Made by a program: the position numbers and the translations under genes. From a virus (Duplodnaviria; Heunggongvirae; Uroviricota; Caudoviricetes), in the IMG/VR virus record IMGVR_UViG_2740892230_000001, positions 1-22,636 of that record: DNA of 22,636 nucleotides; one strand, written 5' to 3'. The notes under the pieces are model-generated. The model was not told the DNA's origin. It was given only the letters and a program-made list of their open reading frames with translations, and did not search any database. Positions 2,132-21,849 of this stretch are shown in pieces. Within the stretch, counting starts at the first letter, position 1; each line of letters opens with the position of its first letter.

Positions 2132-2206
2132 GTCGTTAATTCCTATACGTAGTTTTACGATACTGAAGCCCTGACGGTCTGGCCACCGTGGGGCTTCGCT
2201 GTTTTA
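2132..2206 (+). ncRNA. Predicted sar-like antisense RNA (about 70 nt) complementary to the antirepressor ribosome-binding site
   Basis: Promoter at 2097-2125, then stem GAAGCCC (2165-2171) / GGGCTTC (2191-2197) followed by GCTGTTTTA. Spans the antirepressor SD (complement of 2140-2144) and start codon. Same arrangement as the known P22 sar RNA. Confidence 0.35.
2181..2194. promoter_or_regulatory. Operator-like motif GGCCACCGTGGGGC between the Arc-like and antirepressor genes (second copy at 2386-2400)
   Basis: CCACCGTGGGGC is repeated exactly at 2183-2194 and 2389-2400; CACCGTG / CACGGTG also at 2413-2419 and 2439-2445. Confidence 0.4.
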
Positions 2207-3013: not shown

Positions 3014-3577
3014 TTGAAAACCATATCTATATTAAAGGTTGCATTAGGCGTCGCTATTATTTTGACTCTCTCAATATTGTTTTATTTTTACCACAAAAAA
3101 ACTGCTATTGCTCTTGATGGTCACGCGGCAAACTCATTTTTCTCAGAGTACATAGTGCCGCTATCAGGAAGCGGTATAACAAATAAATATACTGACTATG
3201 ACATCAAATATGGAATTGATGATGGGGAGACTATTGTATTACATGTAATCATTAAAAACCTAATGACAGTAAATAAAAATACAGACTTCAACGATAAAAA
3301 TACAATACATCACAACAACAGCAAAACATTAATTTCTTATAGTAGCAACATCTATACGGATAAATACCTAAAATACATATCAGAAGATACAATAAAAGAA
3401 ACCCGCGAAAAGTTAAAAAACATATATTGTGCATCCGGCAGTTTTCACAAATTATCGCCGCAAGAGCGTTTATTCTACGAAGCAAGAAAACAACGTAAGT
3501 CAATAATATTACATTATTATGCTGATTCAGGGGAGTCACTCATATTTAATATTGGGGTTTCCCCTGAATCATGCTAA
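3014..3577 (+). CDS. Membrane-anchored protein, about 187 aa, N/K/Y-rich, unknown function (candidate superinfection-exclusion or abortive-infection factor)
   Basis: TTG start at 3014 with ideal AAGGAG SD 7 nt upstream (alternative starts ATG 2987, TTG 2966). N-terminal hydrophobic helix KTISILKVALGVAIILTLSILFYFY. Very AT-rich gene. Positional analogue of P22 sieA beside mnt. Confidence 0.5.
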   Translation: MKTISILKVALGVAIILTLSILFYFYHKKTAIALDGHAANSFFSEYIVPLSGSGITNKYTDYDIKYGIDDGETIVLHVIIKNLMTVNKNTDFNDKNTIHHNNSKTLISYSSNIYTDKYLKYISEDTIKETREKLKNIYCASGSFHKLSPQERLFYEARKQRKSIILHYYADSGESLIFNIGVSPESC

Positions 3578-16316: not shown

Positions 16317-16609
16317 TCCTGTTCACTGGCCTCTTTGGCCATCTTCAAATACTGTTCAGGGCAATGAGCCATAACGCGCTGAAACAGTTCCAGCGCCAGA
16401 TTGCGTTGCCCCTCATTAAATGCCATTGCCATAGCATCCATCGGAGAGATAGCGGAAAACACCCGGCCTTTCTCCAGCACAGACCAGACAACGCGACGCC
16501 CCTGTTCACTGCTCATGACAAAGCGAATGTCATCAATTTCACGCTGTGCCATGTCACGTTGCTTACGGGCGTTTTCTTCTTTCAGTTGATCGTCTTCGTA
16601 ATCTGTCAT
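16313..16609 (-). CDS. Hypothetical 98-aa protein between the portal and scaffold genes
   Basis: Track ORF with 4-nt overlaps at both ends (translational coupling). Confidence 0.5.
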   Translation of the reverse strand: MTDYEDDQLKEENARKQRDMAQREIDDIRFVMSSEQGRRVVWSVLEKGRVFSAISPMDAMAMAFNEGQRNLALELFQRVMAHCPEQYLKMAKEASEQE

Positions 16610-18285
16610 TGTGATTGCCCACCCTGACCACTAACTGCATTCGCCATAGCTGACAAAACACTCGGATCCGAAGTTTTAGCTTCGCTTAGCGTCTTGGCAC
16701 CCTGTGCCGCCGCCATCCCCATCGCCATCATTTGTTGCTGCTGTTGCTGCTGTGCCCGTTGCTGGCGAGCCTGATCAACCTGTTCCTGCGGAACAATGAC
16801 GGTTGGAGACACTCCGGACATATCAGCGAATGCATCGATCGCCTGATCAACGTTGAGTTTGTCGAGAGCTTCTGGTTTCGCTTGCGCAAGTTGACCAATG
16901 AAGTTAACCGTGGACGCCAGACTGGACAGGCCGATAGACTTCTGCGCCTGAGCCATGACGGAAATGTATTCGACCTTCAGGGGCATGCCTTCCATCGCGT
17001 CAGGCGGTGGCGGCAGCATGTTTTTACGCACCATCATCGAGAAAGCGCGGTCAATGAGAGGATTAAGACATTCGTCGTTCAGACGCTCCAGAACCGGCCC
17101 CAACATCAGAAGTTTTTCTTCTTTCATTTCGATCACCGCTTCAACAGGCATCGAGCGGGTATTGATGTTCTGCAACATCATGAACAGATCGACAAAGTAG
17201 GCGCTGTTAATGATTTGACGAGTGTCCTGAATGTCTGCTACCAGATCTGCTGTACTGGGGTTAACCAGATAAGCAGGCCTGAAACCATCCTGACCAGTAA
17301 TCTGATCGATATACGTGATGTCGCCAGGAAGAAGGGAGGCGCGCTGATTCTTGAGGGAAGTCGGAGCAACCATCGGCGGATTGGTGGCTTTATCAATCAA
17401 CTGCGACTTGCGCTTCTGAAGAAGCTGCAATGCCTTAACAGGTCCAAGCGCCAGCATACCCGGGCATGATGATCCATAAACATCTTCGCCGTTAACTTCC
17501 CAGCGCGGAGCCATAATTGGAAACTCATCGAATCCGGACTCACGCAACAACTTGTCGTTATCGCCGCCAACCTCGTAATAAACCGATTTGAATGGCTTGT
17601 TCTTGCTATCCAGCTTCGATGTATCGCGGTCAATGTTCGGGTAAACCGAATGCATCACCTCAATCCACTTCTCGTAGGTGCCACTTTCCCACATGCTTTT
17701 TACGGATTCGCTGACGTTATTTAGCCCGAACTCCTGAACAAGCTGACGAACAGTCATAGAGAACTTGCGAAAACAGATGTCCACACTGCCACGAGGTGAG
17801 TTAGCCAAGTAGTAACTACCTATCGGGAATGGCATTGTGCGAATGATGTCCTCGTCATCCTCCAGCACCGCCATTGCACCAGTGCTGTATGTGCCGAGGC
17901 TTCCGTATAACTGCGGAAGAGACTGGTAGAGATTCGACTTATTGAACATATCATTCATGCGGTTCTGCACCGCCTCAAGCCACAACTTAACAGGGCCATA
18001 ATCCATCATTTCAGGATCTGGCGTAGCCAGGCGAAACCACGGACGCGCGGGGCTTGTGATGCCTGACATCATGCCGCTGGCGAGAGTGCGCGCCGCCATA
18101 GTCCCGGTCGAATCAATAATGCGTGTATTGCGTCGATCGTTACGGTTGACCTCAGAAGTCAGAAAGCGGGAACCACGCGGGTTGATGTAATCACTCAACT
18201 CGCGCCAGTGCGGCTCGAACGACTGACGCTCGCTTTCAAGTTGTGCGAACTGTTTGTTCAATCGCTCTTTAGTTGTTTCCGCCAT
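16606..18285 (-). CDS. Portal (head-to-tail connector) protein, 559 aa, with a poly-Gln C-terminal tail
   Basis: Size and position after the terminase genes. C-terminus QQRAQQQQQQQMMAMGMAAAQG resembles the Gln/Met-rich tail of T7 gp8. GGAG SD. Confidence 0.7.
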   Translation of the reverse strand: MAETTKERLNKQFAQLESERQSFEPHWRELSDYINPRGSRFLTSEVNRNDRRNTRIIDSTGTMAARTLASGMMSGITSPARPWFRLATPDPEMMDYGPVKLWLEAVQNRMNDMFNKSNLYQSLPQLYGSLGTYSTGAMAVLEDDEDIIRTMPFPIGSYYLANSPRGSVDICFRKFSMTVRQLVQEFGLNNVSESVKSMWESGTYEKWIEVMHSVYPNIDRDTSKLDSKNKPFKSVYYEVGGDNDKLLRESGFDEFPIMAPRWEVNGEDVYGSSCPGMLALGPVKALQLLQKRKSQLIDKATNPPMVAPTSLKNQRASLLPGDITYIDQITGQDGFRPAYLVNPSTADLVADIQDTRQIINSAYFVDLFMMLQNINTRSMPVEAVIEMKEEKLLMLGPVLERLNDECLNPLIDRAFSMMVRKNMLPPPPDAMEGMPLKVEYISVMAQAQKSIGLSSLASTVNFIGQLAQAKPEALDKLNVDQAIDAFADMSGVSPTVIVPQEQVDQARQQRAQQQQQQQMMAMGMAAAQGAKTLSEAKTSDPSVLSAMANAVSGQGGQSQ

Positions 18286-18299
18286 TTCAATGACTCCGG

Positions 18300-18506
18300 T
18301 TACTGACCAAGCAGCGTTTTACCGCTGGTATTAGCGGTTGATGTGTCACCCTGAGAACCGGTAAGCAGCGTAGAACTACGACCAGCAGCAGCGCGACGGC
18401 GACGTGTTTCTTCGTCGCGGGCATCAACAACGGCGGCATCCTGCTCCTGTGGTGCTGCCTGAACTTCTGGTGTTGCAGGCACTGATGGTGAGCTACCCAT
18501 GCACAT
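18300..18506 (-). CDS. Hypothetical 68-aa low-complexity protein upstream of the portal gene
   Basis: Shares a 12-nt initiation region (CGGAGTCATTGA then ATG) with the portal gene: tcaatgactccg at 18508-18519 and 18288-18299. Confidence 0.35.
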   Translation of the reverse strand: MCMGSSPSVPATPEVQAAPQEQDAAVVDARDEETRRRRAAAGRSSTLLTGSQGDTSTANTSGKTLLGQ

Positions 18507-18933
18507 ATCAATGACTCCGTACGCAATTAAATTATTACCAATTTAACCACATATGATTTATTTATCGTAGATAGTTGACATTTAACGCACAAATTATTAC
18601 CTTTCAGGTAAGCAAAGGGTTCATTCCGGTTATTAACCTGACTGGCTTGTCGTTAAATTGAACAGGTGGAGTGAGCTTTTATTTTGAGCAGTACGGCGTA
18701 TGGCACATGCGCCGATAGCGGTCTGGATACGTTTAAGGGGCACCCTCCCTTGCTCGGGCAAACGAACCAGGTAGCCGGAATGTGCAAGTCGAGCGGTTTT
18801 ATTCCGCGCACGGGGATTCACCATCCCGGCGATTCGGTGTGACGCCTCGGAAGAGACGAGGGTACAACGATGAGAGCATTTATGGAGCCGCGACAAAGTG
18901 TGGCGCCTTAACAGGCTAAGTGCTCTCAGCGTT

Positions 18934-19010
18934 GTGGCATTAGCTCAGTTGGACAGAGCAACCGCCTTCTAAGCGGTTGGTCGCAGGTTCGAATCCTGCA
19001 TGCCACGCCA
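18934..19010 (+). tRNA. tRNA-Arg, anticodon UCU, 77 nt with encoded CCA
   Basis: Hand-folded cloverleaf: acceptor GTGGCAT/ATGCCAC, D-stem GCTC/GAGC, anticodon stem ACCGC/GCGGT with loop CTTCTAA, T-arm GCAGG-TTCGAAT-CCTGC, discriminator G. Similar to, but clearly diverged from, E. coli argU as recalled. Confidence 0.9.
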
Positions 19011-19053
19011 GAATCACGCCTAAGGACCGTGATGCCAGAAGTTCCAGGGGCTT

Positions 19054-19096
19054 GGCGGTGATGGTTTCCCTTGAAGGACTATCACCGCCCTTTTTA
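19054..19096 (+). terminator. Rho-independent terminator downstream of the tRNA
   Basis: GGCGGTGAT ... ATCACCGCC 9-bp stem followed by CTTTTT. Confidence 0.5.
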
Positions 19097-19173
19097 CAGC
19101 AGGACGCCATTGCGATGACTTCATGCTGTAAACCAGTACAGCCACGGAAGGCATAACTCATTGCTTCCAGTTC

Positions 19174-19199
19174 GCCCGGTTCGCCGGGCATTTTTTTTG
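19174..19199 (+). terminator. Second Rho-independent terminator downstream of the tRNA
   Basis: GCCCGG-TTCG-CCGGGC followed by ATTTTTTTT. Confidence 0.6.
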
Positions 19200-19306
19200 G
19201 CGTGATACGTCACAATTATGATATCGATGCAGATTACGACATACATGAAAAACATGTCATAGTATCTCCTGAGGTTAATCTCGATTCAAAAAGAGGATGA
19301 TTTATA

Positions 19307-19654
19307 ATGATTAAAATCAATAACGTACGTGGTGCTAGCGTTAGCGTCAACGGAGAAGACTTCACTGGTCATCATATTACGATTAACAATGGAAAAGTGA
19401 TCGTTGATGGTGTCGAAAAAAATAGCAATCTTGACGGACAGATTAACGTAACAATTAATGGAAGCGTGGAAGGTGTTGAGATTGAAAATGGATCAGTGAC
19501 TGTAAGCGGTGATGCACATTATGTGAAAACTATGTCTGGTGATGTCCATTGTTCCAATGTATTGGGAAATGTAAACACCATGTCTGGAGATGTAATCTGC
19601 GAAACTGTTGGTGGAAACGCCAGCACAATGTCTGGAAATATTATCAAGAAATAA
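19307..19654 (+). CDS. Beta-rich repeat protein, 115 aa, bactofilin-like pattern, unknown function (moron)
   Basis: AAGAGGA SD; AT-rich; own terminator. Repeated G-x-V/I beta-strand motifs and TMSGDV/TMSGNI repeats (INVTINGSVEGVEIENGSVTVSGD...). Confidence 0.55.
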   Translation: MIKINNVRGASVSVNGEDFTGHHITINNGKVIVDGVEKNSNLDGQINVTINGSVEGVEIENGSVTVSGDAHYVKTMSGDVHCSNVLGNVNTMSGDVICETVGGNASTMSGNIIKK

Positions 19655-19666
19655 TTATTTAAAAAT

Positions 19667-19697
19667 AAAGCCCGCCAAATGCGCGGGCTTTATTTTA
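19667..19697. terminator. Bidirectional Rho-independent terminator between the convergent 115-aa ORF and the large terminase gene
   Basis: AAAGCCCGC-caaatg-GCGGGCTTT flanked by A-run and T-run. Confidence 0.6.
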
Positions 19698-19739: not shown

Positions 19740-21215
19740 TTAAGCATAAGGGTCATAATCCGTTATGGCCCTTCCCTGCTGGCTTTGCTGTCCTGGTATA
19801 TTTATGCGTTTCGAGACCGGGAAAGCAAACGTCAGCAGTAGCGCATCGCCTTTACCCGGAGAACGCCCAAGCCGCTCCTTGATATCTTCCTTCGGTTCGA
19901 TAACGATTTTACCGTCCACACGAACTTTGTACTCTGCCGCCGACAGGTCGTCTGCAGTTTCCTGGTCATCCAGCATGCCGCCCAGCCTCAGCCATGTCTT
20001 ACATGAGTTGAACATCTCCCCGCGCTTGTTAAGCATCTGCGGGTCAGTGGACGCACCGCCGAACGGAACAAGTTGCCATGTACGTCCCCAGCCATCACCG
20101 ATTGACTTCAAACCGGTTCCGTAACCGAAGTCGATGAACACCGCGTCAGCCTGATACTGGTCTTCAAAGTCAGCGATACGCTTCGCCATAATCAGATCGT
20201 CGGTAGTCTTGTTGCCAGTCCACAGCACCTTACTGTGTAGCCCCTGCCGCAGGTATATCACCGCGTCATCAACGCCTGAATATGCTGGGTCAACACCGAT
20301 TATCACCGGAGCATGTGCAACCTGCGCAGCGGTGACCACCCGTTTCATTGCCTCGTCAGTAAGGCCGGTAGGGATAAACTGCAATTCAGATGCATCAGGG
20401 AATATGCCGCGCACACGGATTTTAACGAAGTCGCTGTCTTCCCCGTAGTCATCAACCCATTTCTGCAACTGCTGTTTGTTAGTGCCTTCCACCGTCCGGC
20501 TGTCAATCTGCGCAGTTTTCCAGCGGTGTTTATATTTGCGGAAACATTCGCGGAAACGCCCGGTGTTACGCGTCGGGTTTCCGAACGCCACCCAGATAAT
20601 CTCAGTGTCTTCGTCCGTAAGCGCACCCTCTGCTACCTCCCACACCAGATCGGCAATGTTCGACGCTTCATCGAATACCACGATGATGCGTTTGCGCTCG
20701 TTGTGTAGTCCGGCGAATGCCTCAGTGTTGTGCTCAGACCAGGGGATTGCGTCAGCTCGCCACCGCTTGTCGTGCCCAGGGTCATTGCTGTACATCGCGG
20801 TAGCTGTACAGGTAAACCAGTCTTTCGTGATAGCAAGGTTTGACCACTTGATAATTTCCGGCCAGGTCTTCGTTCGTAGCTGGTTGTCGGTGTTGGCGGT
20901 CACCACGACCTTACAATCCTCGCAAGTGGACATGCCCCAGTTGATCAGCATTGAGATGAATGCGGATTTACCAATGCCGTGACCCGAAGCACGTGCCAGC
21001 ATAAGCGGCTGATAGCGCGTCTCTGGATTCTGCAGGTGATCACGTATCTCTCGGAACGCATCAGCCTGCCACTTACGTGGACCGGTGGCATGTGCCAGTT
21101 CAGTCCCCTCTTCCCCCCAAGGGAACGCATAGAGGGCATAGCCAAGCGGATCGTGAGTGAACCCTGCAATATCCTCGATTAACTGCTCTTCAGGAGATAA
21201 CGCTGTATCTGTCAC
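19740..21215 (-). CDS. Terminase large subunit, 491 aa
   Basis: Walker A-like LARASGHGIGKS, Walker B IIVVFDEAS, nuclease-domain motif VIIGVDPAYSG. GTG start overlaps the terS stop (GTGA). Confidence 0.85.
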   Translation of the reverse strand: MTDTALSPEEQLIEDIAGFTHDPLGYALYAFPWGEEGTELAHATGPRKWQADAFREIRDHLQNPETRYQPLMLARASGHGIGKSAFISMLINWGMSTCEDCKVVVTANTDNQLRTKTWPEIIKWSNLAITKDWFTCTATAMYSNDPGHDKRWRADAIPWSEHNTEAFAGLHNERKRIIVVFDEASNIADLVWEVAEGALTDEDTEIIWVAFGNPTRNTGRFRECFRKYKHRWKTAQIDSRTVEGTNKQQLQKWVDDYGEDSDFVKIRVRGIFPDASELQFIPTGLTDEAMKRVVTAAQVAHAPVIIGVDPAYSGVDDAVIYLRQGLHSKVLWTGNKTTDDLIMAKRIADFEDQYQADAVFIDFGYGTGLKSIGDGWGRTWQLVPFGGASTDPQMLNKRGEMFNSCKTWLRLGGMLDDQETADDLSAAEYKVRVDGKIVIEPKEDIKERLGRSPGKGDALLLTFAFPVSKRINIPGQQSQQGRAITDYDPYA

Positions 21216-21815: not shown

Positions 21816-21849
21816 GTGGTAATAGTTACCATTGTGGTAATAGTACCAT
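21816..21849. repeat. Tandem direct repeat (17 + 16 nt), each unit internally palindromic, immediately upstream of the terS start
   Basis: gtggtaatagttaccat (21816-21832) and gtggtaatagtaccat (21834-21849); arms GGTAA/TTACC. CCACCGTGG, the immI operator core, abuts at 21811-21819. Confidence 0.6.

Follow-up and report, generated by a model that had tools for sequence, protein, structure and literature searches.

To our knowledge, very few natural examples of antitermination mediated by RNA alone are known. The put RNAs serve as the model of an RNA polymerase being altered by its nascent transcript; they suppress termination in cis, and this requires the zinc-binding domain of the beta-prime subunit of the polymerase. 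In the Bacillales, the eps-associated RNA (EAR), a structured cis RNA of more than 100 nucleotides (nt) located mid-operon, promotes processive read-through. Other structured non-coding RNAs (ncRNAs), such as the T4 species 1 and 2 RNAs, GOLLD and ROOL, lie near phage tRNA genes and have an unknown function. At the position that concerns us in the lambdoid phages, i.e., that of nutL or putL, RNA-only antitermination is established for HK022 put (PMC9378689). Here, we describe an RNA element found in a stretch of 22,636 nt (hereafter, the window) which corresponds to positions 1 to 22,636 of the IMG/VR virus record IMGVR_UViG_2740892230_000001, a member of the Caudoviricetes. The element (18691-18936, + strand) is a non-coding, highly structured RNA, and it is widespread among enterobacterial phages, several unrelated families of which carry it where early or accessory transcription units begin. 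We tentatively read it as a cis-acting RNA that would promote terminator read-through, in other words, as a functional counterpart of HK022 put or EAR.

An earlier note on this DNA, made by a model from the letters, had drawn attention to a GC-rich, hairpin-rich, non-coding stretch upstream of a phage tRNA gene, and this description is borne out: the folding energy of 18691-18940 is -101 kcal/mol (z = -2.83; 2 of 200 shuffles equal it), the stretch matches a covariance model with 148 bits, and its helices covary among relatives. That model, R1, was built from the same alignment of 31 diverse cores in which a structure containing pseudoknots was tested. In the window, the core comprises the following parts:

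18691-18867 (+): universal core, ~165 nt; R1 match of 148 bits (E 7e-49), one copy in the window
18694-99/18709-14 (+): helix H1, CGGCGU/GCGYCG
18719-26/18767-70 plus 18774-77 (+): helix H2, bulged, which closes a variable hairpin region
18727-66 and ~18789-812 (+): variable hairpins in the core
18770-88 (+): invariant 19-mer GGTAGCCGGAATGTGCAAG
18813-16/18824-27 (+): helix H5, a 4-bp stem with loop UUCACCA
18845-49/18857-61 (+): helix H6, a 5-bp stem with loop GAAGAGA
18703-08/18780-85 (+): candidate pseudoknot PK1, GCACAU of the H1 loop with AUGUGC
18819-22/18836-39 (+): candidate pseudoknot PK2, CACC of the H5 loop with GGUG

Across the alignment, 97.3% of the cells are paired, versus 89.2 ± 0.5% in shuffles (a value of 97.3% was reached in 0 of 500) and 26-41% in a control in which the 3' partners were slid by 1-3 columns. 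Two-sided changes occur in 11 pairs of the core structure, with three such pairs each in H5 and H6; among these changes are G-C to A-U in H1, C-G to U-A in H2, and C-G to A-U in PK2. No variation at all is seen in PK1 or in the lower portion of H2: their support is invariant complementarity only, and covariation is silent on them either way. Invariant unpaired nucleotides are also present within this compact pseudoknotted core. Because numerous G-U pairs would be unable to pair on the opposite strand, the functional strand is the + strand. The same strand-specific pairing and the many G-U pairs led us to reject a DNA-level site (pac, att or ori). A hairpin formed by GGCGTATG-GCA-CATGCGCC had been placed by the earlier note at 18704-18722; it does exist, although its actual coordinates are 18695-18713, ~9 nt upstream.

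The absence of a convincing open reading frame (ORF), claimed in the same note, was upheld, while the frame sizes given there (13-24 codons) were not: the + strand has listed frames of 52 and 45 amino acids (aa), whereas those of the - strand measure 87 and 52 aa. A Pfam scan of these mechanically derived ORFs returned no match in the interval. The 87-aa minus-strand frame has only about its first 24 residues in common with its counterpart in phage cdtI and then diverges. In addition, every mod-3 class is represented among the core lengths of the 31 relatives, and no stop-free frame exists in 7 of them. Protein coding was consequently rejected, the frames being unconserved, broken by indels and devoid of Pfam matches.

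Downstream of the core, two further parts complete the element:

18863-69/18930-36 plus 18871-82/18917-28 (+): long 3' helix, ~20 bp, with an A/G mismatch at 18870/18929
18883-18916 (+): hypervariable tip closed by the 3' helix

The 3' helix covaries across relatives. Duplex predictions were made for 127 copies, which hold 31 distinct strand pairs: cognate strands gave -19.4 kcal/mol versus -14.9 kcal/mol for non-cognate ones, and 0 of 10000 permutations were as good. Its last three pairs use positions 1-3 of the adjoining tRNA-Arg. In any case, this helix is optional, as it is missing in P1-type copies and another group has a different conserved 3' module; the core alone is universal. The tip varies from 5 to 168 nt among copies and is non-homologous even between otherwise near-identical elements. 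When the 44 distinct tip inserts were compared with ~1.3 Mb of related phage DNA, no match was found outside the element except for one 15-mer at chance level, and hence a guide-like role of the inserts was rejected within that scope. In a bolder variant of our interpretation, the tip would be a payload or specificity cassette carried on a constant scaffold. As a separate observation, tRNA-like pieces (GGTTCAATTCCAG, GGTTCGATTCC) are present in some inserts (L009, SPN9TCW; L158, Stx2a phage WGPS2; L104), and the insert of L104, of ~68 nt, resembles a whole degenerate tRNA. An identical 85-nt insert is carried by one ε15-like and one lambdoid phage, which indicates that the module moves between phage types.

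The family was sampled through ~157 copies from phage, prophage and viral-metagenome sequence. Loci were collected by means of the 19-mer (at least 120 viral-contig loci and 24 loci in species-representative genomes, with at least 110 distinct copies among the loci so retrieved), a procedure that biases the sample toward close relatives; eight BLAST-derived aligned copies, chosen independently of the 19-mer, all carry it. The species-representative loci belong to the Enterobacteriaceae or Erwinia in all but two cases, which are metagenome bins labelled Firmicutes. About a fifth of the complete E. coli genomes (1064 of 5426) have a match. According to BLAST, 18693-18937 is ~83% identical to the lambdoid phages cdtI, mEp460, 2H10 and Ayreon and to Stx2c- and Stx2a-converting phages, and its first ~165 nt also match P1, P7 and further phages of the P1-like group, as well as phages of Klebsiella and Enterobacter and one of Stenotrophomonas; the family also includes a Lastavirus.

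Regarding annotation, the element is either unannotated or overlapped only by a tRNA in the E. coli genome records listed, and the RefSeq records listed hold no ncRNA annotation for it. Rfam 15 returned no match in the element of the window, at the gathering threshold or at E<10, nor did the cores of eight related loci give any match at E<=1. The RNA family thus appears to be new to Rfam 15, to the retrieved annotations and to the full-text literature searched, although an earlier description is possible. The prophage small RNA (sRNA) svsR, considered as a candidate for the same element, was set aside because it lies inside the 3' end of cI (PMC12803456) and is a different element.

The surroundings of the element in the window are those of an ε15-like phage: a 901-base query (18400-19300) is 100% identical to Escherichia phage TL-2011b and ~99% identical to phiV10 and other ε15-like (Uetakevirus) phages. 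The element sits in the gap between a small minus-strand gene (18300-18506) and the large terminase gene (19740-21215, - strand). Around it, the following features can be differentiated:

16606-18285 (-): portal gene, adjoining the small gene 18300-18506
18575-18611 (+): promoter-like region, with -35 TTGACA at 18575-18580, a 17-nt spacer and a weak -10 TACCTT at 18598-18603
18612-18690 (+): 5' leader, from the putative transcription start to the core, partly conserved in ε15-like phages only (alignment)
18934-19010 (+): tRNA-Arg, anticodon UCU, with encoded CCA end (ARAGORN; Rfam tRNA 73.3 bits), an optional partner of the element
19054-19098 (+): intrinsic terminator T1, GGCGGTGATGG...CTATCACCGCC then a T run, which belongs to the conserved module
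19099-19198 (+): inter-terminator conserved region and terminator T2, the latter being GCCCGGTTCGCCGGGC then T8
19307-19654 (+): accessory gene ORF115, 115 aa, phrog_3163 (function unknown), downstream of T1 and T2

The TTGACA hexamer lies exactly where the earlier note had seen it. The proposed -10 matches the consensus at 3 of 6 positions and the promoter was not called by a consensus scan; the block 18575-18611 is nearly invariant in an alignment of four ε15-like phages. Promoter activity is inferred. The palindrome TTACCTTTCAGGTAA at 18597-18611 overlaps the putative -10 and is a possible operator. A one-mismatch copy, TTACCCTTGAGGTAA, is found at 1100-1114, just downstream of an antirepressor-like gene; phage Tyrion has exactly this version of the palindrome at its homologous promoter. 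Another copy, with two mismatches, is located at 21826-21840. In the window, three matches to the palindrome were found versus 0.47 expected by chance, and the three copies may be a shared operator. The 5' leader contains a weak terminator-like hairpin (18626-18645). As for base composition, 18475-18700 is AT-rich (GC content 0.36-0.37) and 18700-19075 is GC-rich (0.54-0.60).

The suggestion that a structured RNA is co-transcribed with the tRNA fits the data: the element is on the tRNA strand, its G-U pairs are strand-specific, its 3' helix overlaps tRNA positions 1-3, and the first terminator called after the 3' helix is T1, which lies beyond the tRNA. This tRNA is the only one found by the tRNA searches, and it is dispensable for the family, since no tRNA is nearby in 109 of the 158 contexts scanned; tRNA-Arg directly follows the element in 28 of 158 and tRNA-Ile precedes it in 19 of 158. 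Beyond T1, the region 19099-19198 ends in an sRNA-like manner (hairpin, terminator, U-run), and the sole Rfam match there is RyhB-like and at chance level (E = 1.8). ORF115 has no Pfam match and shows a repeated MSGDV/MSGNI motif; at ~19668-19692, 3' of this gene and facing the end of the terminase gene, there is a hairpin flanked on both sides by A/T runs.

In general terms, the 157 oriented loci are found in three main contexts: (i) 53 ε15-like loci, in which, as in the window, the element lies between the portal and terminase genes and precedes tRNA-Arg; (ii) about 80 lambdoid loci; and (iii) 14 loci in the P1-type ban operon. In the lambdoid loci, a cI-type repressor gene is located upstream on the same strand (79 of 80), with a median distance of 237 nt from its end to the 19-mer. 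In 50 of 79 loci, the top sigma-70-like promoter of that gap has at least 9 of 12 matches, and the median distance from the end of these promoters to the core is 55 nt. The element occupies the position of nutL or putL. The order in cdtI is as follows: cI stop, cI terminator, TTGACA-17-ATAATG, core, 3' helix, cloverleaf-like region, strong terminator (GGCGGTACCAG...CTGGTACCGC then a T run), second long hairpin, and first gene. PHROG scans and clustering of the first downstream lambdoid ORFs revealed no N-type antiterminator family among them; these first genes include phrog_204, YfdQ and others, mostly of unknown function.

Of the lambdoid loci, 48 of 69 have intrinsic terminators 3' of the element, as do 43 of 47 loci of the ε15-like type. 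Both phage types have the terminator form GGCGGT...ACCGCC-TTTTTACA, and this shared sequence implies that the mobile unit consists of the core, the helix, the tRNA or tRNA-like region, and the terminator. In 39 of 41 ε15-like loci, a co-oriented ORF (at least 60 aa) is situated between that module and the gene for the terminase, and these ORFs vary widely. In several ε15-like relatives, T2 is followed within ~11 nt by AAGGTGAGATT-ATG of a variable gene, and no good promoter was seen in the T1-T2 interval of these loci. As there is no room for a promoter between T2 and the ATG, such a gene must be transcribed through T1 and T2. A conserved junction at which the cargo is swapped was also observed at T2 (L021, L094, L051, L052 and L034; ~+330 to +450 from the 19-mer). 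The ban operon of P1 and P7, which is under C1 control, holds the core between tRNA-Ile (15 nt upstream) and ban (~100 nt downstream).

Some additional observations concern the segments next to these terminators. In lambdoid copies (L002, mEp460; L003, cdtI; ~3245-3370), a region of 115-135 nt takes the place of tRNA-Arg; it begins with GUGGUGA or GUGGUAA, ends with UCACCAC or ACCAC, and can be drawn as a four-armed cloverleaf-like fold. ARAGORN called nothing in it and its energies are no better than those of shuffles (z = -1.2 and -0.4), and for these reasons a tRNA-like structure after the lambdoid copies was rejected. Just upstream of the first terminator, several relatives (L007 2631-2750, from Stenotrophomonas phage BUCT708; L138, L014, L013 and L077) carry a segment resembling the 3' half of RprA, a host sRNA (UUGCUGUGUGUAGUCUU plus terminator), with 50.2 bits in Rfam versus a gathering score of 70; it may be a phage-borne RprA mimic, and the window copy is without the string UUGCUGUGUGUAGUCUU.

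From these data, a mechanism can be proposed in which the leader RNA would be transcribed from the repressor-type promoter at ~18575-18611, probably together with tRNA-Arg. The ~165-nt core would then act in cis on the very RNA polymerase that has just made it, and this polymerase would become resistant to the intrinsic terminators T1 and T2 and, probably, also to Rho on the long untranslated transcript. Expression of the tRNA and of the accessory gene(s) further downstream would follow; in the lambdoid relatives, the whole early-left operon would depend on the core. The earlier note had listed an unrecognised regulatory RNA among its options, and this option is now the leading and a plausible one, the function being inferred only. 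Read-through in cis is the most economical reading because two architectures share a promoter, a structured RNA, terminator(s) and promoterless genes. The lambdoid loci support it, since the RNA occupies the nutL/putL position in phages without an N gene. Moreover, the core is the only universal part, and in P1/P7 it stands mid-operon just ahead of ban. Phages mEp460 and mEp390 belong to the mEp collection, which was isolated as Nus-dependent (PMC11893012). This dependence, the boxA-like strings and the canonical boxA of some copies are hints of Nus factor involvement, though weak ones, as the boxA-like string is itself part of a helix that covaries.

Several points weigh against the read-through reading. 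First of all, there is no detectable homology with put. The putL and putR sites were located in the HK022 genome, with their numbering confirmed against the cryo-EM paper (PMC9378689), and the HK639 record carries an annotated putL-like antiterminator RNA; model R1 found nothing at HK022 putL and putR or at HK639 putL, either with default filters or with filters off, and Smith-Waterman maxima against put were in the shuffled range (110-224 of 300 dinucleotide shuffles as good). Secondly, the terminator travels with the RNA as one module, which equally fits a self-contained ncRNA gene. Thirdly, the window has a short transcription unit that converges on the terminase gene, and processive read-through would therefore bring little obvious benefit; ORF115, which starts 109 nt beyond T2, unlike in the relatives with a T2-adjacent ATG, may have its own promoter. 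Furthermore, two ε15-like loci carry the module without a downstream ORF, and no terminator was detected after the P1 copy. Finally, read-through could result from plain leakiness or from a protein encoded elsewhere in the phage. As a side observation, the H1 hairpin and the putL of HK022 and HK639 (L132 ~735-810, - strand; L160 34187-34312, - strand) share ACGGCG...CAUGCGUCG..AGCG, without significance; put homology based on the strings ACGGCG...CAUGCGUCG, CGG-AAUG-UGC and GGAAGAG was discarded, as neither the filters-off model nor the shuffled alignments gave a significant result.

The main rival, which we consider rather unlikely yet worth serious attention, is a stable, trans-acting early ncRNA with its own gene, made together with the tRNA or the tRNA-like structure. 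RNase P would free it at the 5' end of the tRNA, perhaps along with RNase III in the 20-bp helix, or it would end at T1. Its target would be a factor of the host or of a rival phage, with a role in host takeover, in anti-defence or in some function related to tRNA; the T4 species 1 and 2 RNAs, GOLLD and ROOL may be its comparators. Such an RNA would account for the fact that the module brings its own conserved terminator, even in the two ε15-like loci where no gene follows, and for the junction GTTGT|GG, which falls at the tRNA 5' end here and at a cloverleaf-like fold in the lambdoid copies. The invariant loop and pseudoknot sequences suggest a conserved binding partner, the non-homologous inserts in otherwise near-identical scaffolds also agree with it, and all three contexts look like early, repressor-controlled units. 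Nevertheless, it leaves unexplained the 5', co-oriented position ahead of protein genes in all three main contexts, as well as the strong terminator between the PL promoter and the left operon of N-less lambdoid phages. In addition, the tRNA-like folds have no statistical support, the inserts match nothing else in the related phage DNA, and no partner protein co-occurs with the element.

An improbable alternative is a conditional switch, in which the core would bind a small molecule or host factor and set read-through or transcript stability according to host physiology. The compact pseudoknotted core with its invariant unpaired nucleotides recalls riboswitch aptamers, and in every case it belongs to a 5' leader, with terminators and genes after it. 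Against this idea, the downstream genes are mutually unrelated (ban, YfdQ-type and diverse accessory genes), the terminators lie 120-250 nt past the core, with the tRNA in between and no overlapping expression platform, and no Rfam riboswitch matches.

We give still less credit to a processing or stability device, i.e., a 5' domain with an RNase III-type stem that would protect or mature the tRNA or mRNA and leave transcription unaffected. The 20-bp covarying helix is of sufficient length for RNase III, a tRNA gene is next to the element both here (tRNA-Arg) and in P1 (tRNA-Ile), and the P1 core would presumably become the 5' end of the ban mRNA once tRNA-Ile is processed out. Most contexts, however, have no nearby tRNA (see the 109 of 158 mentioned above), the P1 copies are without the long helix, and known stabiliser hairpins are much simpler than a core of 165 nt that contains two candidate pseudoknots and an invariant block of 19 nt.

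A packaging RNA of the phi29 pRNA type, conceivable from the terminase/portal neighbourhood, was rejected because the lambdoid and P1 copies are far from packaging genes. Lastly, the decayed tRNA cluster proposed in the earlier note, or a small-protein gene, has almost nothing in its favour beyond T-arm-like sequences in the variable 3'-helix tips of some relatives and mechanical ORFs of up to 87 aa, and is contradicted by the lack of any tRNA-like match in 18527-18933 (ARAGORN; Rfam E<10), by covarying pseudoknotted helices unlike a cloverleaf, and by the lack of conservation of the ORFs.

Apart from the element, other phage RNAs were noticed in these genomes. The window contains an Rfam match to sar RNA at 2133-2200 (+ strand; 44.8 bits, gathering score 43), which adjoins an antirepressor-like ORF of 314 aa on the opposite strand (1187-2131, - strand); the sar/antirepressor layout of 1187-2200 resembles that of the P22 immI region. 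Matches to C4 antisense RNA and isrK above the gathering score were found on the - strand in the antirepressor region of mEp460 (L002 706-894) and cdtI (L003 777-965), and are a P1-type immI module inside lambdoid genomes.

Whatever its mechanism, the family matters, inasmuch as it is abundant, passes between phages of unrelated types and is not annotated as an ncRNA in the RefSeq records listed. Its entry in RNA family databases would improve the annotation of phages and prophages, and the element marks a conserved insertion site for accessory genes. If the read-through reading is true, it would explain the expression of the early-left operon, including excision functions, in the large N-less lambdoid prophage group, to which Stx2c-converting phages, some Stx2a-converting phages and cdtI belong. 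Likewise, a second RNA-only antiterminator, larger and pseudoknotted and in the same niche, would be an important finding and would provide an independent system for studying the modification of polymerase by nascent RNA.

When compared with known systems, the element is like the T4 species 1 and 2 RNAs, GOLLD and ROOL in that it abuts a tRNA gene (tRNA-Arg here, tRNA-Ile in P1); unlike GOLLD and ROOL, it is much smaller and has no Rfam match, and most copies are without a tRNA neighbour. When set beside the lambda nut sites and the rrn leaders, it has the position after PL (lambda) in common, and its 3' helix holds a boxA-like string (UGCUCUUU / UGCUCUC); many copies have such strings and a hairpin further on. 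A canonical boxA (TGCTCTTTAACAA) follows some copies, and in lambdoid copies the hairpin lies ~13 nt downstream; in the window copy, the tRNA is in place of the hairpin that follows the boxA-like string in those copies. The GAAGA-containing loop of H6 also resembles the lambda boxB loop. Unlike nut, there is no N-like gene, the universal core has no counterpart in nut or the rrn leaders, and the boxA-like string is base-paired, with compensatory changes that destroy its boxA character (e.g., UGCGCUCCC).

With EAR, the element shares its nature as a structured RNA of more than 100 nt and, through its placement in the P1 ban operon, the mid-operon location; in contrast, it is unrelated in sequence and host clade and has no Rfam match. 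The closest likeness of position is with the put RNAs of HK022 and HK639, as in both cases a nascent leader just after PL of N-less lambdoid phages has terminators downstream. But while put is ~70 nt long and folds into two stem-loops, the core has ~165 nt, four helices, two candidate pseudoknots and an optional 20-bp helix; unlike put, it occurs once per genome, the ~3 kb examined on the PR side having shown no copy, and the family also extends outside the lambdoid phages (ε15-like phages, P1/P7 and a Lastavirus). Taken at its most ambitious, this comparison points, with considerable reserve on our part, to a previously undescribed class of phage RNA which would reprogram RNA polymerase alone, i.e., a second RNA-only solution to antitermination, structurally unrelated to put and carried as a mobile module shared by lambdoid, ε15-like and P1-like phages.

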